IMG/VR virus record: IMGVR_UViG_3300020202_000016
Location: 1-50,021 of that record
Direction: 5' to 3' (one strand)
DNA length: 50,021 nt
Source: a virus
Lineage: Duplodnaviria; Caudoviricetes
Part shown: piece after piece, positions 2,777 through 22,393 of the stretch
Layout of the letters: the number at the start of each line of letters is the position of its first letter
Numbering within the stretch: position 1 is the first letter of the stretch
Made by a program: the position numbers and the translations under genes
Notes under the pieces: model-generated
What the model was told of the DNA's origin: nothing
What the model saw: the letters and a program-made list of their open reading frames with translations, nothing else
The model's database searches: none

Positions 2777-3247
2777 ATGAGCGTTAAAGATATACTTGCT
2801 GCGAATCTAAAAAAGCTGATGGATTCAGACGCCCGGTTGCGCACATGCGACGCGGTGGGTCAACGTTCCGGCGTGAGTCGCAGTACTATTAATAGAGTAA
2901 CCCGGGGTTCTGGTGGTGTTTCGGTCGATCACGCCGAAGAGATCGCACAAGCATTTAAGTTAGAATTATGGCAACTACTATCACCAAATCTTGATCCGCA
3001 AGCACCCCCCGTGCTGAGCACGGGAGATCAAAATGTAATGCGACTTGCGCGCATTATCGCGAGTTTGGACGAATCGCAACAAGCGCAGGTAATTGGATTT
3101 GTTTCGGGGGTTAAGGTAAACCAGGGGTTGCGCCCAAATATAGCTATAGATGATAATTCGACGATTCAGCAATCATTGATAAGTGATCGGAGCGAGCGTG
3201 GGGGAGCTGGTTTACTTTGCGAGGCAAAGGCCCGTAAAGCGGGATGA
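2777..3247 (+). CDS. cI: CI-like XRE repressor with no S24 protease domain (start may be 2732, 2768 or 2777)
   Basis: ILAANLKKLM..SGVSRSTINRV..IAQAFKLELWQLL HTH; divergent from cro. Confidence 0.75.
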   Translation: MSVKDILAANLKKLMDSDARLRTCDAVGQRSGVSRSTINRVTRGSGGVSVDHAEEIAQAFKLELWQLLSPNLDPQAPPVLSTGDQNVMRLARIIASLDESQQAQVIGFVSGVKVNQGLRPNIAIDDNSTIQQSLISDRSERGGAGLLCEAKARKAG

Positions 3248-5629: not shown

Positions 5630-6124
5630 ATGAACCTATTCGAAATCGCCGAAGAATACCGCTACGCCGCTAGCAAACTTGTTGATCTTGAGATTGATGA
5701 ACAAACGGTTACGGATACGCTCGAAAGTGTGTCTGGCGATCTGGTTGAAAAAGGCAAGAACATCGCATTTGTAATTCGCAATTTGGAATCGGCTTCTGAC
5801 CAAATTACCGATGCTATCGCGGCAATGAAGAAACGCAGCGATAGCATGAGAAAGCGAGCAGACCGTATGCGTGAATTCTTACTTGCTGGAATGTCACACG
5901 CAGGTATCAAAGAAATCACCTGTCCATTTTTTACTATCCGATCACGCCAAAACCCTGAGTCTGTCGATGTTTACGAAGAAGCACTTATCCCACGTGAGTT
6001 TTATACCGACCCAAAGCCTCCTGAGCCAACTGTCGATAAAAATCTTATCAAGAAAGCTATCAAGGATGGTTATGAGGTTCCAGGAGTTAAGTTGGTTAAG
6101 AAAGCAAGACTGGAGATCAAATAA
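5630..6124 (+). CDS. Siphovirus Gp157-family protein
   Basis: Coiled-coil N-terminus; C-terminal IPREF..VDKNLIKKAIKDGYEVPGVKL. Confidence 0.85.
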   Translation: MNLFEIAEEYRYAASKLVDLEIDEQTVTDTLESVSGDLVEKGKNIAFVIRNLESASDQITDAIAAMKKRSDSMRKRADRMREFLLAGMSHAGIKEITCPFFTIRSRQNPESVDVYEEALIPREFYTDPKPPEPTVDKNLIKKAIKDGYEVPGVKLVKKARLEIK

Positions 6125-10095: not shown

Positions 10096-10395
10096 ATGAA
10101 TGATGCTAGTATGAAACCCTATCTAACTGACGCAGAAATTGCCGATATTTGCAAGCCTCTAACCCAGCCAGCCGCGCAATGTAAATATTTAAGATCGCTG
10201 AATTTACTAGTAAAAGTAAAGCCAGGCGGCGGCCCGCTAATAGGCCGCTCACATTTTGAAAAAGTAATGGGTGGTGCGACCACCTCACAAAATGAAGAGA
10301 GCATGTCAAAAGAAGACGAACCGGATCGATCCGCAATGATTATAAAATTTAGACAAAAGAAAGTAGCCCATGCCACCGAACGGCCGGAAGCGTAA
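10096..10395 (+). CDS. Excisionase-like protein (DUF4224-type)
   Basis: YLTDAEIADIC..QPAAQCKYL..KPGGGPLI; overlaps the integrase start. Confidence 0.7.
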   Translation: MNDASMKPYLTDAEIADICKPLTQPAAQCKYLRSLNLLVKVKPGGGPLIGRSHFEKVMGGATTSQNEESMSKEDEPDRSAMIIKFRQKKVAHATERPEA

Positions 10396-11431
10396 AACTA
10401 ACGACCTGAACTTACCGAGCCGTGTTTATTTTAAGCATGGTCAGTTTTGGTACGTGCATCGTGACAGGCGCTGGGAACCTCTCGGTGCCGATGTAAAAGA
10501 AGCCATCCGGAAAGGCAAGCTTTATAACGACCCAGACAACGTATATGGCACGATGGCATATTACCTTGATGCTTTTATCGTGCACTGCGAAAAGCGCATC
10601 GGTGCAAAATCAAACGCACTCGCACCGCGCACATACGAAGACTATAAACGCAACATCGAGCCGCTGAAAATTTACTTCGGAAAAATGACACCGGCAGCAG
10701 TGAAGCCCAACCACGTTGGAAGTTATTTGGATCTCGGCGTTGAGCTTGATCGACCTATACGCGCAAACCGTGAGAAGGCCTGCCTATCAGCGTGCTTTAC
10801 GTGGATGATTCGGACCGGTGATGCCGGCATAACAACTAATCCGTGCATCGGTGTGCGGCGCAACCCTGAAACTAAGCGGGATCGCTACGTTACCAATGCA
10901 GAATTTCATGCAGTACGACAAGTTGCACCGCTGTCAGTGCGTTCGATGATGGACTTGATCTATCGCACGTTGCAAAGACCAGAAGATATTATTGGATGGT
11001 CGCGCGCTAACATCCAAACCAAGATCGAAAACGGCACGGCGCGCAAAGTTTTGCGGAATGATCAGGGCAAAACTGGAAAAATAGTCGACATCGCAATTAC
11101 CCCCGAAATTGACAGCATTCTGCACGCCCTATTCGGCGCTGCCGGGCCGGTGGTAGGCATGACACTTATCCATCGCAAGAACGGGCGCCAGTACACCTAC
11201 AGCGGCCTCTGTACGATGCTCAAGCGAGCAATTAAAAAAGCTGGCGTACCGATGTTTGGTTTTTACGATTTGAAGGGTAAGGGCGCAACTGATATGTGGC
11301 AAAGCGGTCAGCCGATCGAACTGATCCAATTGCTATGCGGCCACGAATCATCCAAGACAACGGAGGTATATATCAAGCAACGTTGGGTTGCCACAGCAAC
11401 ACCAAATCAGGTAGCATTCGTGTCTAATTAA
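10370..11431 (+). CDS. int: Tyrosine integrase
   Basis: R(TLQRPED), K(QGKT), FYDLKGK, LCGH and Y(TTEVY) catalytic motifs. Confidence 0.92.
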   Translation: MPPNGRKRKTNDLNLPSRVYFKHGQFWYVHRDRRWEPLGADVKEAIRKGKLYNDPDNVYGTMAYYLDAFIVHCEKRIGAKSNALAPRTYEDYKRNIEPLKIYFGKMTPAAVKPNHVGSYLDLGVELDRPIRANREKACLSACFTWMIRTGDAGITTNPCIGVRRNPETKRDRYVTNAEFHAVRQVAPLSVRSMMDLIYRTLQRPEDIIGWSRANIQTKIENGTARKVLRNDQGKTGKIVDIAITPEIDSILHALFGAAGPVVGMTLIHRKNGRQYTYSGLCTMLKRAIKKAGVPMFGFYDLKGKGATDMWQSGQPIELIQLLCGHESSKTTEVYIKQRWVATATPNQVAFVSN

Positions 11432-12094: not shown

Positions 12095-12412
12095 ATGAAG
12101 AAAGTATCTGAATTAGATTTCTTGGTAGCCGAGCACTTGACCACGCTAGATCAAATGATCGAACGCTTAAAATTCGCGCGCAAGAAAATCGGGCACGGCG
12201 ATGTTGCGGTATGTGTTGCAGTTCCAGGTTCCAATGGATTCACAACGCCTTACATTCGCGTCACTCTCCCCACAGTGCTTCTAGCTGAAGGCAGCACAAG
12301 AGGTACAGAAGCATTGGTGATTGGAGCTTTTCCAGCGCCGCGAAATCCTCCGATACCAACAACGTTCCCATTTAAAGTTATAGAGAAAGGCAACGACAGT
12401 GAAAGTAATTAA
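12095..12412 (+). CDS. Hypothetical protein overlapping the rtcB start
   Basis: AAGGA RBS; 105 aa ORF. Confidence 0.55.
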   Translation: MKKVSELDFLVAEHLTTLDQMIERLKFARKKIGHGDVAVCVAVPGSNGFTTPYIRVTLPTVLLAEGSTRGTEALVIGAFPAPRNPPIPTTFPFKVIEKGNDSESN

Positions 12413-13586
12413 TGAAGACGGCTCTCGTCCGATTAAAATTTGGACGGACTATGTAGAAGATTCTGCTTTAGTCCAGTTAAAAAACTTGGCGCGGCTACCA
12501 TTTATTGCCGGCAATGGCGTTGCCTGTATGCCGGATGTTCATGCCGGAATAGGTTCGACTGTCGGCACCGTCATCGCGACAAACAAAGCAATTATTCCGG
12601 CCGCTGTTGGGGTTGATATTGGTTGCGGCATGAATGCGATAAGGCTGTCACTCAAGGCTTCTGATCTGCCGGAATCGCTTATAGAAATCCGCCATCAGAT
12701 CGAACGAGACATTCCTCTTGGTGCCGGCGGTGCAAACAAAGAGCGCTGCTATCAGCAGGGAATCATTGAGAGCGGCCACTTAAGGGCCGTGTCTACAGGT
12801 ATGGGCATCATCAATGATTCTTTGATACATAAAGCAGCAGTTCAGTTAGGTTCGCTGGGTTCAGGTAATCACTTTATAGAAATTTGTCTCGATGAAAATC
12901 AAGACGTTTGGATCATGCTTCACTCTGGTTCGCGTGGAGTGGGAAATAGAATCGGGACACACTTTATCGAAAAAGCCAAACGCGACATGGAAAGGTTTTT
13001 TATCAACCTTCCAGATAAAGACCTGGCCTATCTACCCGAAGACACCGAAACGTTTAACGATTACGTTAGCGCCGTTAGCTGGGCCCAAGACTACGCTTTA
13101 GAAAATAGAAAGCGAATGATGGAAAAAGTTATTGCTGCGCTTTCTGTGCATATCCCGATTGGATTTTCAATCACACAAGAAGCGATCAATTGCCACCATA
13201 ACTATATCGCCCTAGAAAACCATTTTGGTCAAAACTTATGGGTTACACGCAAGGGCGCTATACGAGCACGCGAAGGTGATCTAGGAATTATTCCCGGGTC
13301 AATGGGGCAGCGCAGCTATATTGTGCGCGGCAAAGGCAATCCAGAATCCTACTGCTCATGCTCACACGGCGCCGGACGTAAGATGAGCCGCACGCAAGCG
13401 CGAAAAACCTTCACGATTGCTGACTTACAATCGCAAACTGAAGGTGTTGAATGCCGCAAAGACAACTCCGTATTAGATGAAATTCCAGGCGCTTATAAAT
13501 CAATTGATGAGGTGATGGCAAACCAAACTGATCTTGTCGATGTCGTGCATATATTGAAGCAAGTCTTGTGCGTCAAAGGTTCTTAA
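12399..13586 (+). CDS. rtcB: RtcB RNA ligase
   Basis: MPDVHAG, VGVDIGCGM, GSLGSGNHFIE, LHSGSRG, HHNY, SHGAGR and DEIPGAYK motifs all intact. Confidence 0.96.
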   Translation: MKVINEDGSRPIKIWTDYVEDSALVQLKNLARLPFIAGNGVACMPDVHAGIGSTVGTVIATNKAIIPAAVGVDIGCGMNAIRLSLKASDLPESLIEIRHQIERDIPLGAGGANKERCYQQGIIESGHLRAVSTGMGIINDSLIHKAAVQLGSLGSGNHFIEICLDENQDVWIMLHSGSRGVGNRIGTHFIEKAKRDMERFFINLPDKDLAYLPEDTETFNDYVSAVSWAQDYALENRKRMMEKVIAALSVHIPIGFSITQEAINCHHNYIALENHFGQNLWVTRKGAIRAREGDLGIIPGSMGQRSYIVRGKGNPESYCSCSHGAGRKMSRTQARKTFTIADLQSQTEGVECRKDNSVLDEIPGAYKSIDEVMANQTDLVDVVHILKQVLCVKGS

Positions 13587-13598
13587 ATAGACTCGGTC

Positions 13599-14129
13599 AT
13601 GAAAAAAATACTAACCGCCCTGCTCTTATTGCCGTGCCTCGCGCTTGGCGCACCGCAACCATTGCCAACCGGCGCGACATACGAGGTTGCATTCTCTCCG
13701 CGCGGACAGTCGCTGCAGATCGTCCTGAGTGGCATCAACGGCGCGCGCGAGTCGATCCTAGTTGCGGCGTACCCGTTCACGAGCAAGCCGATCGCCACCG
13801 CACTGCTCGACGCTCACAAGCGCGGGGTACGCGTGCAAATCGTCGCGGACAAGAAGAGCAACAGCGGCAAATACAGCGCGGTTACGTTCCTCGCAAACCA
13901 GGGTGTACCGGTGCGACTCAACGACCGCTATGCGATACATCATCATAAGTTCATGGTCATCGATGGCACAACGTTGGAGACCGGATCGTTTAACTATTCT
14001 GCCGGCGCGGTTAACAAGAATGCTGAGAATGTGATCGTGTTGCGCAACGCGGCACCGGTGGCGCAGGCCTATGCGCGCGAGTGGCAGCGGTTGTGGGATG
14101 AAGCCTACGAACTTAAACCCGCTTACTAG
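13599..14129 (+). CDS. nuc: Secreted PLD-family (Nuc-like) endonuclease
   Basis: Signal peptide; single HKD motif HHKFMVID..GSFNYS..NAEN. Confidence 0.88.
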   Translation: MKKILTALLLLPCLALGAPQPLPTGATYEVAFSPRGQSLQIVLSGINGARESILVAAYPFTSKPIATALLDAHKRGVRVQIVADKKSNSGKYSAVTFLANQGVPVRLNDRYAIHHHKFMVIDGTTLETGSFNYSAGAVNKNAENVIVLRNAAPVAQAYAREWQRLWDEAYELKPAY

Positions 14130-14192: not shown

Positions 14193-14665
14193 TGAGGTTC
14201 CCTCGATATTTCGTCCACCATCAGGTGATGTTATGCAGCGGATTTTTTCTGAGTTTGCTGATTCCTCCAGTGGTCGAGATATTGAATGGGAGATTGATAG
14301 CCAAGTGTCGAATGTTGGCGAGTTCGATTATAAAAGACTTCAATGTACTCAAAGCTGGCAGCCTTCATTTCGGTATGGGTAGCGTAACGTAGGCCATGAT
14401 ATCGCTCGTTTTTGAAACTGTTAAACCAGCTCTCGGTCGGGGCGTTGTCCCAGCAGTTTCCTTTGCGACTCATCGAACAGGTCATGCCAAATTCCTTGAG
14501 CTTGTCTTGAAACATCTGACTCGCGTATTGGCTGCCGCGATCCGAATGATGCATAACGCCGGCATCCGGCCGACGGCGAAACCAGGCCATGGTTAAAGCA
14601 TCCGTCGCAATATCGCTCGTCATACGAGGCTTGAGTGACCAGCCTATGATTTCTCGATTGAACAA
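14193..14665 (-). pseudogene. IS3-family remnant: transposase C-terminus and right end
   Basis: HSDRGSQY..GNCWDNAPTESWFNSFK..YNRTRQHSTLGY; IR-like TGAGGTTCCCTCG at 14193; 5' truncated. Confidence 0.85.
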
Positions 14666-14720
14666 ATAACCTGAATGTTGTTATGCCTTGGGAGCTATTA
14701 TTACCACCTGAACCACCCCA

Positions 14721-14933
14721 AATGAGTTTGCCTTATGAAGAAGCCGGAACAGTTGGAACCGCAACCGCCGAGCAAGAGTGCCTTTGACGATCTGTTGAAG
14801 CGAATGCTATCAACACCGCCAAAGCCGCATCCGAAACCAGCGAAGAAAGTCGCAAATAAAAAAACCGCCAAATAGGCGGTTTTTTTATTTTAGGACCGAT
14901 CGTATAGCTGGGTTTCCTTAGTACACACTTCCG
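14721..14933 (+). mobile_element. Possible IS1595-family right-end remnant with small ORF 14735-14875
   Basis: NEFA fragment followed by FDDLLKRMLSTPPKPH peptide and a putative end GTACACACTTCC. Confidence 0.4.
14858..14886. terminator. Bidirectional intrinsic terminator
   Basis: A-tract, ACCGCC-aaata-GGCGGT, T-tract. Confidence 0.75.
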
Positions 14934-14961
14934 AATTTTTTGGTTGATTGCAGATAATATC

Positions 14962-14990
14962 TTGACAAGCGCAGTTTGTGTGCGTATAGT
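14962..14990 (+). promoter_or_regulatory. sigma70 promoter of the Y RNA/rsr operon, with an inverted repeat in the spacer
   Basis: TTGACA-N17-TATAGT; GCGCA-N7-TGCGT at 14969-14985. Confidence 0.8.
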
Positions 14991-14998
14991 GCGATTTG

Positions 14999-15123
14999 TG
15001 CTTGGTGTAGATAACGGTTACTTCCATTGGGCGGAGAGGGTCGCGGGTTCGAGTCCCGTCAGTCGGCAACGACTGTAGCTCAGCGGTAGAGCATCTAAAT
15101 CTCCGTTATCGTTTGTTCCGGCA
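14999..15123 (+). ncRNA. yrlA: YrlA-type Y RNA (circularly permuted tRNA mimic)
   Basis: Stem GATAACGG/CCGTTATC; T-arm GCGGG-TTCGAGT-CCCGT, then acceptor-like CAGTCG-GCAA-CGACTG, then D-arm GCTC-AGCGGTA-GAGC; upstream of the Ro gene. Confidence 0.85.
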
Positions 15124-15131
15124 AAGTTTTG

Positions 15132-15221
15132 TGGGTAGTGTAGATTGCGGTTACTTCGGTTAGGGCCAACGCAAGTTGGCTGCTGGTTCAAGCCCAGCGT
15201 CCGCCATCGTTTGTTCTCCCA
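15132..15221 (+). ncRNA. Second Y-RNA-like ncRNA
   Basis: Shares GTGTAGATnnCGGTTACTTC and CCGnnATCGTTTGTTC with the first RNA; GCAA hairpin and T-arm GCTGG-TTCAAGC-CCAGC. Confidence 0.78.
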
Positions 15222-15259
15222 ATGCCAACATCGAGCCTCTTTTTTAATCAGGAGGCATT

Positions 15260-16579
15260 ATGCGTACTAATGTCAAATATGCAGGCGCTGAAAAAACATA
15301 CGAAGGCGCGCTATCTACTAGAGTCATGACGCCAGCCGAAGAGCTGCGCCGCTCGGTTATGGCGTGCATGCTCTTCGAAAATTCTTTCTATGAATCCGGC
15401 GCAGATGCTGCGGGCCGCATGCAGGCCCTGGTCAAGCAGGTTCCATTCGCGGATGCGGCGCAAATTGCAATCGATGCTCGCGAAAAAATGAAACTTCGGC
15501 ATGCGCCATTATTTTTATTGCGCGAACTGCTTCGGTATCATAAAGGGCGTGAGGTAGGCGATTTGATCGCTCGTGTAATCCAGCGCCCTGATGAGCTCGG
15601 GGAGTTGCTAGCTTTGTACTGGAAAGACGGAAAAGATCAACCCCTGACCTCACAGCTCAAAATCGGATTGGCTCGCGCTCTCAAAAAATTCTCACCGCAC
15701 CAATTAGCAAAATGGAATAAGGACAGCGCAGTAAAGCTGCGCGATGTTTTATTCTTATCGCACGCAAAACCAAAGAATGATGAACAGGTTAATTTATTTA
15801 AACAGTTAGCTGAAAATACCTTGCCAACCCCGGACACTTGGGAGGTTGCACTCTCAGGCGGTGCCGATAAAAAAGAAGTTTTCACTCGGCTAATAACCGA
15901 AAAGAAACTTGGCGCACTCGCCCTATTGCGTAACTTGCGCGGAATGCTAGAGGCCGGGGTATCAGAAGATACTATTCGCGACGGACTAACAAACATGGAT
16001 GCGGAGCGAATCTTACCATTTCGCTTTATCTCTGCCGCAAAACACGCTCCGCGTTTAGAGGACGCGCTAGAGCAAGCCATGTTCCGCTGTCTTGCGGAAA
16101 GCCCAAAACTTAGCGGCAAGACTGCTTTACTAATCGACCATTCCGGATCAATGCAAAGTCCTGTGTCAGAAAAATCGGAAATTTCTAGATTCGATGCAGC
16201 AGCAGCCCTAGCGATGATATTGCGCGAAACAGCCGAGCAATGCCGCATATTTACATTCTCGGATCGATTGATCGAAGTCCCGCCGCGCCGTGGCTTTGCT
16301 CTGGTTGAGGCCGTTCGTCAAGTAATTAATCCGGCAGAAACGCTACTAGGCGCTGCCGTAAAAATGGTCTATCTACAGTTTCCAGAATGCAATCGAATCA
16401 TCGTTATAACTGATGAGCAATCACGGGATCGGCCGCCCCACCCACAGGGGGGTGGCTATATTATCAATGTAGCGGGATATCGAAACGGCATTGGCTATGG
16501 CCCATGGGTAACAATTGATGGATGGTCGGAGGCGGTAATTGAGTATATTCGAGCGAGCGAAGAAACCGCTTCCCAGTGA
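15260..16579 (+). CDS. rsr: Ro60/Rsr RNA-binding protein (TROVE + vWA)
   Basis: QRPDELGELL, KLRDVLFLSHAKP, TWEVALS, ALLRNLRGM and LPFRF motifs; MIDAS DHSGS...ITDEQ; AGGAGG RBS. Confidence 0.93.
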   Translation: MRTNVKYAGAEKTYEGALSTRVMTPAEELRRSVMACMLFENSFYESGADAAGRMQALVKQVPFADAAQIAIDAREKMKLRHAPLFLLRELLRYHKGREVGDLIARVIQRPDELGELLALYWKDGKDQPLTSQLKIGLARALKKFSPHQLAKWNKDSAVKLRDVLFLSHAKPKNDEQVNLFKQLAENTLPTPDTWEVALSGGADKKEVFTRLITEKKLGALALLRNLRGMLEAGVSEDTIRDGLTNMDAERILPFRFISAAKHAPRLEDALEQAMFRCLAESPKLSGKTALLIDHSGSMQSPVSEKSEISRFDAAAALAMILRETAEQCRIFTFSDRLIEVPPRRGFALVEAVRQVINPAETLLGAAVKMVYLQFPECNRIIVITDEQSRDRPPHPQGGGYIINVAGYRNGIGYGPWVTIDGWSEAVIEYIRASEETASQ

Positions 16580-16733
16580 CATAAAAGAAGCGCGGCTTGC
16601 TGCTGGCTTAACGCAACAGCAAGCCGCTGAATTGATCGGTTATTCGCGTCGTGCATGGCAAGAATGGGAATGCGGTCGTCGCAATATGCGGTTCTTGGTT
16701 TTTGAAGCATTTAAAATTGCTACGGAAAAATAG
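16539..16733 (+). CDS. XRE-family HTH regulator
   Basis: IKEARLAAGLTQQQAAELIGYSRRAWQEWECGRRNM; overlaps the rsr 3' end. Confidence 0.85.
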   Translation: MSIFERAKKPLPSDIKEARLAAGLTQQQAAELIGYSRRAWQEWECGRRNMRFLVFEAFKIATEK

Positions 16734-16759
16734 CTGTTTTTACAGATCGATTGTCAACC

Positions 16760-17041
16760 ATGACCTACTTATTTGAAGATCGAGAACCAGATTTTGTCAA
16801 CGAGAAAGGGGTTAAATGGTGGCTAGATAAAGCAATATCGGATTACGCACAAAAAGCAGATCAGAACGGTATTAAGGTTGATGCAACTGGGTTTGTGATC
16901 GAGATGCAAAATGGTTTTCGTAGTTATGTGTTGCTATCGAAGGGTGGTAAGATTTTAAGCGATGACCAGAAGCTGGAAGCAATATATTGTAAAATTGACA
17001 TACTAAAACTTGCTGAGAAATATGATCGCCAAGACGCGTGA
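16760..17041 (+). CDS. Hypothetical phage protein
   Basis: ORF downstream of the XRE gene. Confidence 0.55.
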   Translation: MTYLFEDREPDFVNEKGVKWWLDKAISDYAQKADQNGIKVDATGFVIEMQNGFRSYVLLSKGGKILSDDQKLEAIYCKIDILKLAEKYDRQDA

Positions 17042-17419
17042 GGAGGAATTCATGAACATTAAGTATGTTGTAGTGCCGGACGAACCAATTCAAGGAATAA
17101 CGGCGGACAATATGATGGAAAATTCTTAGAGGATTTTCTTGATTACGATGGTGAGCCCTCTCTTTATGTAAGATTATGGCATGTCCTTTCGCGGGAAGAG
17201 ATGATGCAGCTATCTAAAGACTGTGTAACCTGGAGGAATCCGCAGGATGAATATATCAGGAAACGAATATCGAACGCTGGCAGAAATCAGTTTGATTATG
17301 AATTCAGGCGAACGATTCACTTCTATCCAGAGCCTTTTGATGCGAAATAAGTGGATATATACAGAAGGTATACATATCGAGAATGATATGTATAGAAAAG
17401 TCGATTTTTTAGATACATC

Positions 17420-17495
17420 GGGCAGGGAGCTCAAAGGTTAGAGCAGGAAACTCATAATTTCCAGGTTGTTGGTTCAAGTCCAGTTCTGCCCACCA
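17420..17495 (+). tRNA. tRNA with CAT anticodon (Ile2 or elongator Met)
   Basis: 76-nt cloverleaf: GGGCAGG/TCTGCCC, GCTC/GAGC, GGAAA-CTCATAA-TTTCC, TTCAAGT T-loop, encoded CCA. Confidence 0.88.
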
Positions 17496-17722
17496 AACAG
17501 AGGTAATTATGTTAAGCGGCCTATATTTAGCAATGCTCAATCCTATGATGACGGATGATGGGCTCTCTCAAATGACGAGGGGAAACCTTTAACGCAAAAC
17601 TAAAAATGATAAAAAGTGTTGAAGATGGACTGGAAGGCTTACGGGGAGAAGAAAAGCAGGAATACATCCGTATTGTGCTTCCACAGCTTATGACTTTAGT
17701 TTTGATGTAAACAGAGGCGCGA

Positions 17723-19203: not shown

Positions 19204-20042
19204 CCCCCGCCCAGAAGCGCTGGTATGCGGAGCAACTGCAAGCGCAAGGCTTAAGCCAGCGGCAAGCCTGCAAAGCGGTTAGGCTGTCGCGCTCGGTGTT
19301 CTCGTACCAGCCGCGCAGCGAATCCGATGAACCGATCATCGTAGTGCTGCAGGAATTGGCGGAACGCTTTCCGGAGCGGGGGTTTAGCAAGTATTTCAAG
19401 GTGCTGCGACGGCGCGGGCATGGCTGGAATCACAAGCGTGTGTATCGCGTATACCGAGCGCTGGGATTGAATCGTCGCCGGATGGGTAAGAAACGGCTGC
19501 CGGCCAGAACGCCAAACCCGCTGGTGGCGCCGGAACAGATCAACCGGAGTTGGTCAATGGATTTCATGAGTGATGCACTGTGGTGTGGCCGGCGATTTCG
19601 CACCTTCAATGTGATAGACGACTGCAGTCGTGAAGTGTTGGCAATCGAGATTGATTTGAATCTTCCAGCCACGCGGGTGGTTAGGGTATTGGAACGGATC
19701 GTCGCCTGGCGCGGCTATCCGGATCGGATTCGCATGGACAACGGCCCGGAGTTTATTGCGGCGGCGTTGGCCGATTGGGCGCAGCAACATGGCGTAACCC
19801 TGGAGTTCATCGAACCGGGGCGGCCTATGCAAAACGGTTTTATCGAGCGCTTCAACCGCAGCTACCGCGAAGGCGTATTGGATATGTATGTGTTCAGGAA
19901 CCTAAACGAGGTGCGCCAACGGACCGAAATATGGATGACCGATTACAACGAGCAGTTACCCCACGATTCCCTCGGCGATCTCACACCCGTCGAGTATCGT
20001 GTTCTTCACCAGCCCGAAACCTCTAGTTTTAACTGGCACTGA
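19191..20042 (+). CDS. IS3-family orfB (DDE), entered by -1 frameshift
   Basis: WSMDFMSD, DNGPEF and NGFIERFN motifs. Confidence 0.9.
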   Translation, partial: FKALAPAQKRWYAEQLQAQGLSQRQACKAVRLSRSVFSYQPRSESDEPIIVVLQELAERFPERGFSKYFKVLRRRGHGWNHKRVYRVYRALGLNRRRMGKKRLPARTPNPLVAPEQINRSWSMDFMSDALWCGRRFRTFNVIDDCSREVLAIEIDLNLPATRVVRVLERIVAWRGYPDRIRMDNGPEFIAAALADWAQQHGVTLEFIEPGRPMQNGFIERFNRSYREGVLDMYVFRNLNEVRQRTEIWMTDYNEQLPHDSLGDLTPVEYRVLHQPETSSFNWH

Positions 20043-21204: not shown

Positions 21205-21546
21205 ATGACGCAACGGGGAACAGGGGCAAGAGCAAAGCTGCGTGCTCATTTTCTTGCGAATGTCGGCAGAGTAATGAATTCTGATGAACTTTTCGAAGCA
21301 TCAGGCAGAACTAGTGAATGGGGCCGCCGTGTTCGTGAGCTGCGAAATGAGGAAGGTTATCAAATACTGACTCATAATGATAGAAGCGGCCTTAAGCCAG
21401 GCGAATATCTTCTGGAAACCACCAAACCGCAGCCAGCTTTTTCCAGGTCAATAAGCAAAGAAACAAGAGCGTACGTTCTTGACCGGAACGGCTTTACTTG
21501 TCAGATGTGCGGGGCAGTAGCGGGGGAACCTCACCCTTATGAATGA
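21205..21546 (+). pseudogene. HNH-type endonuclease, truncated before the HNH core
   Basis: WGRRVRELR..RAYVLDRNGFTCQMCG..GEPHPY, then fused to IS3 orfB. Confidence 0.75.
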
Positions 21547-22393
21547 GGGGTGCTATTCGGTGCGCCAACTCTGTCACGCGATGGAAGTTCATCCAAGCGG
21601 ATATTACGCTTGGCGAATTCAGCCCGATTCGGCGCGTGCGCTGGAAGATCGACGCCTGGTAGGCAGAATCAAGCAATCATGGCTCGAAAGCGGAACGGTC
21701 TATGGCTATCGTAAAGTGCACGACGATTTATTAGAACTAGGTGAACGCTGCGGAAAGAACCGAGTGTATCGTTTGATGCGCACTCATGCGATGCGTGCAC
21801 AAATAGGTTACCGGCGCCGTCCTCATGCACAGACAGGAGCGGCATCCGTAATTGCAGAGAATCGTCTACAACGACAGTTTAACGTCGCTGAACCTAACCG
21901 CGTGTGGGTTACCGACATTACTTATATTCATACGCAAGAAGGTTGGCTGTTTCTGGCCGTAGTGCTCGACTTGTTCTCGCGTCAAGTGATCGGTTGGTCG
22001 ATGCAAGCGCGCATGGATCGCGAGCTGGTACTCAATGCGTTACTAATGGCCGTCTGGCGTCGACAGCCTCAGCAATCTGTGATCGTGCATTCGGATCAAG
22101 GCAGCCAGTTTAGCAGTCACGATTGGCAGAACTTCCTGAAAGCGCATAACTTGCAACCCAGCATGAGTCGGCGCGGCAATTGCCATGATAATGCGGTTGC
22201 CGAAAGCTTCTTCCAATTACTCAAACGCGAACGGATTCGCCGTAAAATTTACCGCACTCGAGAAGAGGCGCGCTGCGATATATTCGATTACATCGAAATG
22301 TTTTATAACTCAAAACGTCGTCACAGCCATAGTCGTCGGCTCTCTCCGGTAAACTATGAGAAGCAGTACTTCGAGAGGCTTGCGCGTGTCTAG
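21539..22393 (+). CDS. IS3-family orfB transposase lacking its orfA
   Basis: WVTDITY, HSDQGSQF and GNCHDNAVAESFF motifs. Confidence 0.9.
   Translation: MNEGCYSVRQLCHAMEVHPSGYYAWRIQPDSARALEDRRLVGRIKQSWLESGTVYGYRKVHDDLLELGERCGKNRVYRLMRTHAMRAQIGYRRRPHAQTGAASVIAENRLQRQFNVAEPNRVWVTDITYIHTQEGWLFLAVVLDLFSRQVIGWSMQARMDRELVLNALLMAVWRRQPQQSVIVHSDQGSQFSSHDWQNFLKAHNLQPSMSRRGNCHDNAVAESFFQLLKRERIRRKIYRTREEARCDIFDYIEMFYNSKRRHSHSRRLSPVNYEKQYFERLARV

Follow-up and report, generated by a model that had tools for sequence, protein, structure and literature searches.

A second Y RNA gene ahead of a phage rsr probably joins a Ro-docking scaffold to a minimal tRNA elbow

The term window is used here for the whole stretch of DNA, a complete IMG/VR virus record that is 50,021 bp long and carries direct terminal repeats. 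Among its products are portal, major head, terminase and DNA-ejection proteins together with an integrase, and the combination of structural genes with an integrase marks the window as a temperate tailed phage. In front of its rsr gene, which encodes an Ro60 ortholog, lie two Y-RNA-type units on the same strand, RNA1 and RNA2 (Table 1), the second of which ends at 15222, 38 nt from the rsr start at 15260. The setting of RNA2 is that of an RNA-repair-type island. The rsr product matches PHROG 850, annotated as 'RNA-binding protein' (1.4e-43), among solved structures the Ro60 of Thermus phage phiLo (9KOP/9L5Y, E 2.7e-29) is the closest to it, and it is presumed to be the protein partner of both RNAs. 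Across the whole window Rfam at its gathering thresholds finds the tRNA-Met alone.

Table 1. Coordinates in the window of the genes and elements around RNA2
Feature	Positions	Strand	Details
Integrase	10370-11431
RtcB ligase	12399-13586		Pfam 2.4e-127
PLD-family, NucT-like nuclease	13599-14129
Integrase-core (rve) remnant	14231-14665	-
Sigma-70-type promoter (predicted)	14962-14990	+	TTGACA, 17 nt, TATAGT; 11/12 consensus positions
RNA1, YrlA-like Y RNA	15000-15124	+	permuted tRNA-like domain: T-arm, closed acceptor-like hairpin, D-arm
U-rich spacer AAAGUUUUG between RNA1 and RNA2	15123-15131	+	from sequence
RNA2, 'GG linker - hairpin - T-arm' Y RNA	15131-15222	+	model R1, full length
Terminal stem, 5' strand (UGGG, bulged U, AG)	15132-15138	+	pairs with 15216-15221
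Helix S1, 5' strand GAUUGCGG	15143-15150	+	pairs with CCGCCAUC 15201-15208; one U-C mismatch
Conserved UUACUUC	15151-15157	+	near-invariant in A6; at the position of the published GNCGAAN0-1G motif
GG linker GGUUAG(G)	15158-15164	+	read as a remnant of the tRNA D-loop 3' half (G18 G19 .. A21)
Hairpin GCCAAC-GCAA-GUUGGC	15165-15180	+	anticodon-arm position; 6-bp stem, tetraloop
T-arm GCUGG-UUCAAGC-CCAGC	15182-15198	+	5 bp; T-loop consensus UUCRANY, G-C closing pair
Helix S1, 3' strand	15201-15208	+
Conserved GUUUGUUC	15209-15216	+
Terminal stem, 3' strand	15216-15221	+
Hairpin GCCUC(N12)GAGGC	15235-15256	+	pairs with the rsr Shine-Dalgarno AGGAGG 15250-15255
rsr, Ro60 ortholog, 439 aa, TROVE + vWA	15260-16579	+	Pfam TROVE 5.2e-11, vWA_Ro60 1e-06
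tRNA-Met	17420-17495		ARAGORN

The sigma-70-type site is the sole + strand promoter-like site within 14600-17600 and lies about 10 nt 5' of RNA1. A TTGACA box stands at the equivalent place ahead of the first unit in related arrays and, judged from its sequence and placing, the site probably drives an RNA1-RNA2-rsr transcript. RNA1 itself aligns to model positions 1-114 of the Rfam YrlA family (RF02553) with 50.5 bits (E 1.6e-10), short of the gathering score of 69. The U-rich spacer that separates it from RNA2 has look-alikes between the units of four related arrays (L003, L004, L007, L008), and may be an endonuclease processing site.

RNA1 and RNA2 share sequence at both ends, as the earlier note had claimed. 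The 5' motif GTGTAGATnnCGGTTACTTC (20 nt) has just two exact copies in the 50,021-nt window, 15005-15024 and 15138-15157 on the + strand, and allowing up to 2 mismatches it was matched nowhere in 100 dinucleotide shuffles. The 3' motif CCGnnATCGTTTGTTC has exact copies at 15103-15118 and 15201-15216; it is weak evidence by itself, because one more match with 1 mismatch lies at 5699-5714 on the - strand and 0.64 matches are expected by chance at 2 mismatches. The insert between these motifs is laid out just as had been described, with GGUUAG, a GCAA hairpin and a T-arm. Both the MFE and the centroid folds of 15132-15221 return the hairpin, the T-arm and two closing stems (15143-15150/15201-15208 and 15132-15138/15216-15221), a single nucleotide (U15181) parting hairpin from T-arm. 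The fold energy is ordinary (z = -1.3, with 18 of 200 shuffles equally stable), and so support for RNA2 comes from its relatives and not from thermodynamics.

Two of the usual marks of a Y RNA are seen in RNA2: a long, covarying stem joins its 5' and 3' ends, with a second module at the opposite end, and it adjoins the Rsr gene on the same strand. The third, the conserved Ro-binding sequence, is missing. Bacterial YrlA and YrlB are described as carrying the motif GNCGAAN0-1G, with GGUCCGA as its vertebrate counterpart, and the motif is thought to be involved in Rsr recognition (PMC4201824). Neither GNCGAAN0-1G nor even CGAA occurs in 14996-15230, an interval that spans RNA1 as well as RNA2, and CGGUUACUUC fills the position of the motif in both RNAs. 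That RNA2 has no such motif had been correctly noted at the outset; since RNA1 does not have it either, its absence does not set RNA2 apart. In the Rfam YrlA alignment the RNA1 sequence GGUUACU is set against a family consensus of GGCgaAU, and clade-wide the sequence at this position is CGG(A/U)UACUUC, of which the UUACUUC part may well contribute to Rsr binding.

Phage records were searched for distant DNA matches to the 321-nt region, and just one, 55 nt long and T-arm-like, turned up, in Vibrio phage BONAISHI; with so weak a return, the Rsr protein and the scaffold motif served as the routes to relatives. Protein relatives of Rsr are abundant. The loci taken were six close viral ones, nine found via the scaffold motif, and the best 80 each of 576 metagenome, 557 species-representative genome and 386 IMG/VR confirmed matches. 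Upstream of rsr in these loci stand arrays of 2-5 units, usually with a TTGACA-type promoter ahead, built on one scaffold with the pattern 5' GGYGNAG-N-S1-(A/U)UACUUC ... S1'-GNUUGUUCC 3' and with inserts that vary from unit to unit. Scaffold matches number about two per rsr locus, reaching five or six.

A covariance model, R1, was built from seven relatives (alignment A5) from which the window was deliberately excluded. It aligns to RNA2 over positions 1-90 of its 90, with all four helices, at 56.9 bits (E 4.8e-13), and on both strands of the whole window it has just one other match, the RNA1 scaffold at 26 bits. A second model, R2, rebuilt from 32 aligned members, scores RNA2 at 68.1 bits. 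Over 85 viral sources R1 gave 183 matches, nearly all on the rsr strand, and over the best 80 of the 557 genome loci, mostly MAGs labelled Acidobacteriota or Terriglobia, it gave 160 scaffold matches. Nearly all of the family members from the genome and metagenome loci likewise share the strand of rsr. RNA2-type and short scaffold-only units overlap in R2 score at 46-55 bits, for which reason length and a T-loop are required as well as a score. By such rules the RNA2 type is present in 20 of 80 genome loci (R1 at least 56 bits, 86-107 nt; best 80 of 557), in 13 of 80 metagenome loci (R2 at least 57 bits, 88-109 nt; best 80 of 576) and, as a T-loop-bearing unit among the matches of at least 76 nt that were inspected, in 10 of 80 viral loci (best 80 of 386) besides the window. 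Altogether the layout recurs at 43 of 240 rsr loci, from phages, Acidobacteriota MAGs and soil metagenomes. The covariance-model search of rsr neighbourhoods thus recovered a conserved family. RNA2 belongs to this variant of Y RNA, which is widespread, lacks annotation and is Yrn1-like in architecture.

Where the RNA2 type sits in its array is not fixed. It is the second of two units in the window, and elsewhere the second of four, third of five or first of four, its distance to the rsr start running from the 38 nt of the window to about 1350 nt. Cultured phages are among its carriers. Caulobacter phage CcrColossus has a member at JX100810 108985-109088 (62.1 bits), which is absent from the three putative YrlA intervals of Chen et al. 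2014 Table S2, and in Xanthomonas phage MET23-P3 a member of 57.4 bits lies inside a five-unit unannotated array. Some other units of middling size have two hairpins and no T-loop consensus. Across 16 loci with the RNA2 type no Rfam family was found on those units at E ≤ 0.001; YrlA-like units are present in 10 of these 16 loci, every one under the gathering threshold.

Covariation was examined in an alignment of 32 sequences, A6, whose rows are related and seven of which were the seeds of R1. Within it 95.0% of cells are paired, as against 74.7% in column shuffles, and none of 500 shuffles reached 95.0%, a control whose significance the relatedness of the rows overstates. Sliding the partners by 1-3 columns reduced pairing to 41-53%. 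At 19 of the 24 pairs both sides have changed, although A6 was aligned to the model and such counts lean towards the structure. The terminal stem (helix 1; 7 pairs, 97.8% of cells paired) has 6 pairs changed on both sides, S1 (helix 2; 8 pairs, 96.9%) has 5, and in the hairpin (helix 3; 96.8%) all 4 have changed. The T-stem has 4 of 5 pairs changed on both sides, its two loop-proximal pairs being G-C in 30 and 31 of the 32 sequences, and GGUUCRA is nearly invariant. RNAalifold on A6 predicts the same helices. Hairpins of the relatives have stems of 4-8 bp and loops of GCAA, UUCG, GUAA, UUAA or longer. MAFFT alignments of 6, 10 and 16 units (A2-A4) were rejected as seeds, being out of register in the hairpin and in the 3' strand of the T-stem. 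Taken with the shared motifs, the covarying stems bear out the earlier note in placing a second Y-RNA-type gene on the scaffold of RNA1.

The GG linker and the T-arm go together. A regex and pairing detector, used solely for sorting module types and for this table, gave 405 distinct units, of which 78 are mid-size (insert 30-70 nt) and have either a T-arm at the end or none. All 25 units with a terminal T-arm have GG(N1-3)A within the first 14 nt of their insert, compared with 20 of the 53 that have no T-arm (Fisher 3.5e-8, a value inflated by relatedness, as with the shuffle control). The detector is noisy in its loose form, with 469 matches on the + strand, 100 on the - strand and 34 in shuffles, and in the genome set it found 9 RNA2-type units against the 20 of the covariance model. 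Where RNA2 has GGUUAG, many relatives have GGUAGA or GGCAGA, and in longer modules the linker is GGUAGAGC, that is a D-loop 3' half plus a D-stem strand which pairs with GCUCA at the opposite end of the insert. This reading of the longer modules makes a D-loop remnant the best reading of the RNA2 linker too. A contact of the linker with the T-loop, an elbow of the G18/G19-psi55/C56 type, would follow the tRNA pattern; the GG and T-loop bases are invariant, so covariation cannot probe their tertiary contact. RNA2-type units have 0-1 nt between hairpin and T-stem, where a tRNA has its variable loop, and with so small a gap the hairpin is predicted to stack coaxially on the T-arm. Stacked in this way, hairpin and T-arm would look less like an anticodon arm than like the acceptor/T-arm half of a tRNA.

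Among the relatives there are also intermediates. In some the RNA2 module has an extra hairpin 3' of the T-arm, in others (L059 1313-1422 and L149 1314-1423 among them) a full cloverleaf is opened at the D-loop, and at one locus (L207 1387-1460) a scaffold unit encloses a complete tRNA-Met-like gene, called by ARAGORN and scored by the Rfam tRNA model at 53 bits. A tentative proposal, which we hold less probable than its alternatives taken together, is that in rsr loci of phages and bacteria modules cut to graded degrees from a tRNA are mounted on one Ro scaffold, in up to about six RNAs, and that these make up a programmable adaptor set for a single Ro ring, provided that every module has a partner of its own. 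The series would run from a tRNA-Met-like cloverleaf through a cloverleaf opened at the D-loop, the YrlA type opened at the anticodon stem and the elbow of RNA2 to a bare hairpin.

RNA2 is neither a tRNA nor a YrlA. With tRNAs (RF00005), D-arm-lacking ones included, it shares the T-arm consensus, the GG..A and the order D-loop, stem-loop, T-arm, but it has no acceptor end, no anticodon loop of 7 nt and, at 0-1 nt, no variable loop. ARAGORN makes no call and RF00005 no match at E ≤ 10 in 14850-15300, and the tRNA assignment was rejected. YrlA, as known from S. Typhimurium and M. smegmatis, has the same kind of scaffold, stands in arrays beside rsr and shares the T-arm GGUUCRAnYCC. YrlA, whose tRNA-like domain is treated in a structure paper (10.1101/312249), has a permuted order in which the T-arm is followed by a closed acceptor-like hairpin and a D-arm, the scaffold replacing the anticodon stem, whereas RNA2 has neither D-arm nor acceptor-like hairpin and its own hairpin precedes the T-arm. 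The YrlA model has no match on RNA2 (15131-15222) at E ≤ 10, nor on the RNA2-type units of 16 related loci at E ≤ 0.001; with no RF02553 match and no permuted domain, RNA2 as a YrlA was likewise rejected. The earlier description holds in that RNA2 keeps the order of a tRNA, a D-loop remnant being followed by stem-loop and T-arm, and departs from the T-AS-D order of YrlA.

The nearest likeness seems to be with Yrn1 of D. radiodurans, for which there is a literature in Chen et al. 2000, 2013 and 2014. Yrn1 is described as lying, like RNA2, upstream of rsr on the same strand and as having a long stem of its 5' and 3' ends with the Rsr site (PMC4201824; 10.1101/312249). The published model gives it D-loop features but neither a D-stem nor a variable arm; its 'anticodon arm' has 5 bp and a 6-nt loop and precedes a T-arm (PMC4201824), and the T-arm is reported to carry psi55 (PMC4201824; 10.1101/312249). 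The layout of RNA2 fits this order of tRNA parts, a likeness of architecture as the papers describe it. Differences are also apparent from these accounts, the Yrn1 module having three stem-loops (10.1101/312249) where RNA2 has two, and Yrn1 having a metazoan-like Ro-binding helix that overlaps a GNCGAA motif where RNA2 has CGGUUACUUC. Yrn1 is reported to tether Rsr to the S1/KH domains of PNPase (10.1101/312249).

Other second Y RNAs also bear on how new the layout is. For the M. smegmatis YrlB, a second Rsr-bound Y RNA, Chen et al. 2014 describe a possible T-arm (PMC4201824), and the likeness to RNA2 rests on that description. The name YrlB is given there to the second RNA of a species and does not denote a homologous family, relatives of the S. 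Typhimurium YrlB being reported only from S. enterica (PMC4201824). In the phiLo phage two Y-RNA-like genes, Yrl1 and Yrl2, lie upstream of the phage Ro60 as RNA1 and RNA2 do here, and the phiLo Ro60 is reported to bind both and to form a RYPER-like complex with host PNPase (PMC12135203). The available text of that paper defines Yrl1 and Yrl2 by CGAA motifs and a stem-bulge-stem fold, with no mention in that text of a tRNA-like module, and R2 has one weak match on the phiLo locus, of 26 bits, downstream of the gene. Titles and abstracts from literature searches describe no subclass of Y RNA made of a hairpin plus a T-arm, and no Rfam family matches RNA2 at E ≤ 10. To speak of an undescribed subclass, as the earlier note did, is too strong given the reported Yrn1 layout and the possible T-arm of YrlB (PMC4201824).

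Overall RNA2 is best explained as a genuine second Y RNA that joins a Ro-docking scaffold to a minimal tRNA elbow, a joint reading to which a probability of roughly 0.7 is given. On this explanation RNA2 would probably be co-transcribed with RNA1 and rsr from the 14962-14990 promoter and then cut from the precursor; in M. smegmatis and D. radiodurans the Y RNAs are reported to be processed from one precursor, and in each of the three bacteria studied at least two Rsr-bound Y RNAs are described within about 2 kb of rsr (PMC4201824). The scaffold common to RNA1 and RNA2, made up of the terminal stem, an internal loop in which GUGUAG faces GUUUGUUC, helix S1 and UUACUUC, would be the docking site on the ring of the phage Ro60/Rsr. 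At the other end of RNA2 would be a three-way junction, with the tetraloop hairpin, 1 nt from the T-arm, probably stacked on it coaxially and the GG of the 5' linker pairing into the T-loop, as G18/G19 of a tRNA do with psi55/C56. The outcome would be a tRNA 'elbow' with no D-stem, acceptor stem or anticodon loop. RNA2 may then tether Rsr to an effector, or gate the Rsr cavity, or both, in the manner of Yrn1, YrlA and the phiLo Yrl RNAs. For the effector the best precedent is host PNPase. The module offered by RNA2 would be smaller than the full L-shaped mimic of RNA1. The sequence, the fold, membership of the family, its covariation, the synteny with rsr and the coupling of GG to T-arm are observations on which this explanation draws; transcription, processing, binding by Rsr, the elbow and the identity of the effector we infer.

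Several other explanations have been weighed. The T-arm could instead be a handle for tRNA enzymes (RNase P/Z, TruB, the CCA-adding enzyme) that serves to mature or stabilise a polycistronic Y RNA-rsr transcript and binds no effector. Precedent is seen in the M. smegmatis YrlA, which is reported to be cut by RNase P and to receive CCA, and in the tRNA-type modifications described for YrlA and Yrn1 (PMC4201824), and the relatives whose scaffold units enclose a complete tRNA-Met-like gene, as at L207 1387-1460, point the same way. Yet the hairpin of RNA2 is closed by a tetraloop, RNA2 has no acceptor-like end to be cut or extended, and the same arrays contain short scaffold units with no T-arm, from which it follows that not every unit requires one; we consider such a role unlikely as the whole explanation.

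A role apart from Rsr, with RNA2 as an elbow decoy or sponge for a host factor during infection, perhaps a defence nuclease that targets tRNA or a protein that modifies or senses tRNA, would suit a neighbourhood of RNA repair and counter-defence in which an RtcB ligase, a PLD-family nuclease and a tRNA-Met gene are found. This seems very unlikely, given that the RNA2 type is at least as common in bacterial as in phage rsr loci (20/80 against 10/80), that the family always carries the Ro scaffold, and that a tetraloop at the anticodon position cannot mimic the substrate of an anticodon nuclease.

Proximity to rsr raises the question of whether RNA2 is a cis-acting leader, for attenuation or translational control of rsr, and not a stand-alone RNA. 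The two are 38 nt apart with no terminator-like site between them, and RNA2 is followed by the hairpin at 15235-15256 that pairs with the rsr Shine-Dalgarno sequence. That hairpin has AGCCUY...RGAGGCU equivalents ahead of rsr in five related loci (L003, L006, L007, L008, L012) and by its pairing may control rsr translation, but it is a separate element downstream of RNA2, which has a complete closed scaffold and a covarying terminal stem of its own. Elsewhere the RNA2 module takes varied places in the array, as far as about 1350 nt ahead of rsr and separated from it by further units, and this variability of position and distance argues against a cis-acting leader, an idea that is now highly improbable. 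That RNA2 is a decaying, functionless duplicate of RNA1 which has lost the acceptor-like hairpin and the D-arm, as might be suggested by the 5' and 3' motifs common to both, by the U-C mismatch in S1 and by a 3' tail that differs (UUCUCCC, against UUCCCCC in relatives), is scarcely credible when 43 of the 240 rsr loci conserve the layout, each of the four helices showing compensatory changes, and when simple deletion from the T-AS-D order of RNA1 cannot place a hairpin before the T-arm.

A second Y RNA with a scaffold and an elbow is thus the preferred reading, and what it means for Y RNAs is in part familiar. That one Ro protein works with swappable effector modules was put forward in the earlier note as an implication of RNA2, but it is already the standing model of the field (PMC4201824; 10.1101/312249), Y RNAs having been described as modular tethers (10.1101/312249). 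The Y RNAs of this clade escape standard annotation, the YrlA-like ones by falling below the Rfam threshold and the RNA2 type by belonging to no family. Occurrence in the cultured phages CcrColossus and MET23-P3 makes the RNA2 family accessible to experiment, and a 90-nt construct of the RNA2 type suits binding, probing and structural work on the tRNA mimicry of Y RNAs. The RNA2 family is a natural and widespread stripped-down Y RNA, of a T-arm, a GG linker and one stacking hairpin; that only these parts are kept on the Ro scaffold suggests that what counts is the tRNA elbow. On the tentative adaptor-set proposal, with a separate partner for every module, RNA2 would define the minimal determinant, T-loop plus GG, that is read in Y-RNA tRNA mimicry.

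Among the modules on the Y RNA scaffold in Acidobacteriota-type loci are some that run from GGUAGAGC through an anticodon-like hairpin, a variable loop, a T-arm and a closed acceptor-like hairpin to UAGCUCA. In these the D-loop is where the tRNA cloverleaf is opened, a permutation different from that of YrlA. At L207, which shares its contig with L009 910-1018, a complete, non-permuted tRNA-Met-like cloverleaf with the anticodon CAU lies within a single scaffold unit (1363-1488). It is called by ARAGORN and reaches 53 bits with the Rfam tRNA model; the unit would thus consist of a tRNA held inside a Y RNA scaffold.

ARAGORN also calls 'tRNA-Thr' and 'tRNA-Asn' within scaffold units of L207 and L258. 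The annotated 'tRNA-Gln' of phage CcrColossus (L260 1134-1201, JX100810 109217-109284) falls within 109117-109288, one of the putative YrlA intervals given by Chen et al. 2014 (PMC4201824), and no tRNA was called by ARAGORN at that site. Given this unsupported annotation and the calls inside scaffold units, tRNA annotation in such arrays is unreliable.

Some phages carry their scaffold-unit arrays 3' of rsr, the Ro60 gene, instead of 5' of it. At the locus of Thermus phage phiLo the sole scaffold-like match of R2, the covariance model of units like the window's second Y RNA, is L259 3485-3546 (26 bits), just 3' of the Ro60 gene and overlapping the start of phiLo_25; the published Yrl1 and Yrl2 (PMC12135203) lie 5' of the Ro60 gene.

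Features of the Y RNA loci and of the window
Feature	Locus	Position	Strand	Remark
D-loop-opened cloverleaf modules	L059; L149; L136; L153; and others	1313-1422; 1314-1423; 1188-1296; 1157-1279
Scaffold-unit arrays downstream of rsr	L221; L239; L188; L231; L255	2860-3176; 2838-3225; 2786-3097; 2838-3129; 2927-4366
Terminator-like hairpin and T run	L004; L005	final ~70 nt 5' of rsr; L005 about 2935-3000
Shine-Dalgarno-pairing hairpin, GCCUC(N12)GAGGC	window	15235-15256		read from sequence
RtcB RNA ligase, then directly PLD-family (NucT/DrmC-like) nuclease	window	12399-14129		5' of Y RNA-rsr unit
Truncated integrase-core ORF (rve, rve_2, rve_3), IS remnant	window	14231-14665	-
tRNA-Met	window	17420-17495		same island as RtcB and PLD-family nuclease
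Two more transposase-like ORFs	window	19296-20042; 21539-22393

The window's rsr has its Shine-Dalgarno AGGAGG at 15250-15255, across which GCCUC and GAGGC can pair, and counterpart AGCCUY...RGAGGCU pairs stand 5' of rsr in L003, L006, L007, L008 and L012; such pairing may control rsr translation. In L004 and L005 a terminator-like hairpin and T run, GGCCTGCGCC..GCAGGCC TTTGTTTTT, separates the last Y RNA unit from rsr, which points to attenuation of the read-through that reaches rsr in these phages.

The IS remnant of the window has the PLD nuclease gene on one side and the Y RNA promoter on the other. The region of RtcB, the PLD-family nuclease and tRNA-Met is a phage RNA-repair or counter-defence island.
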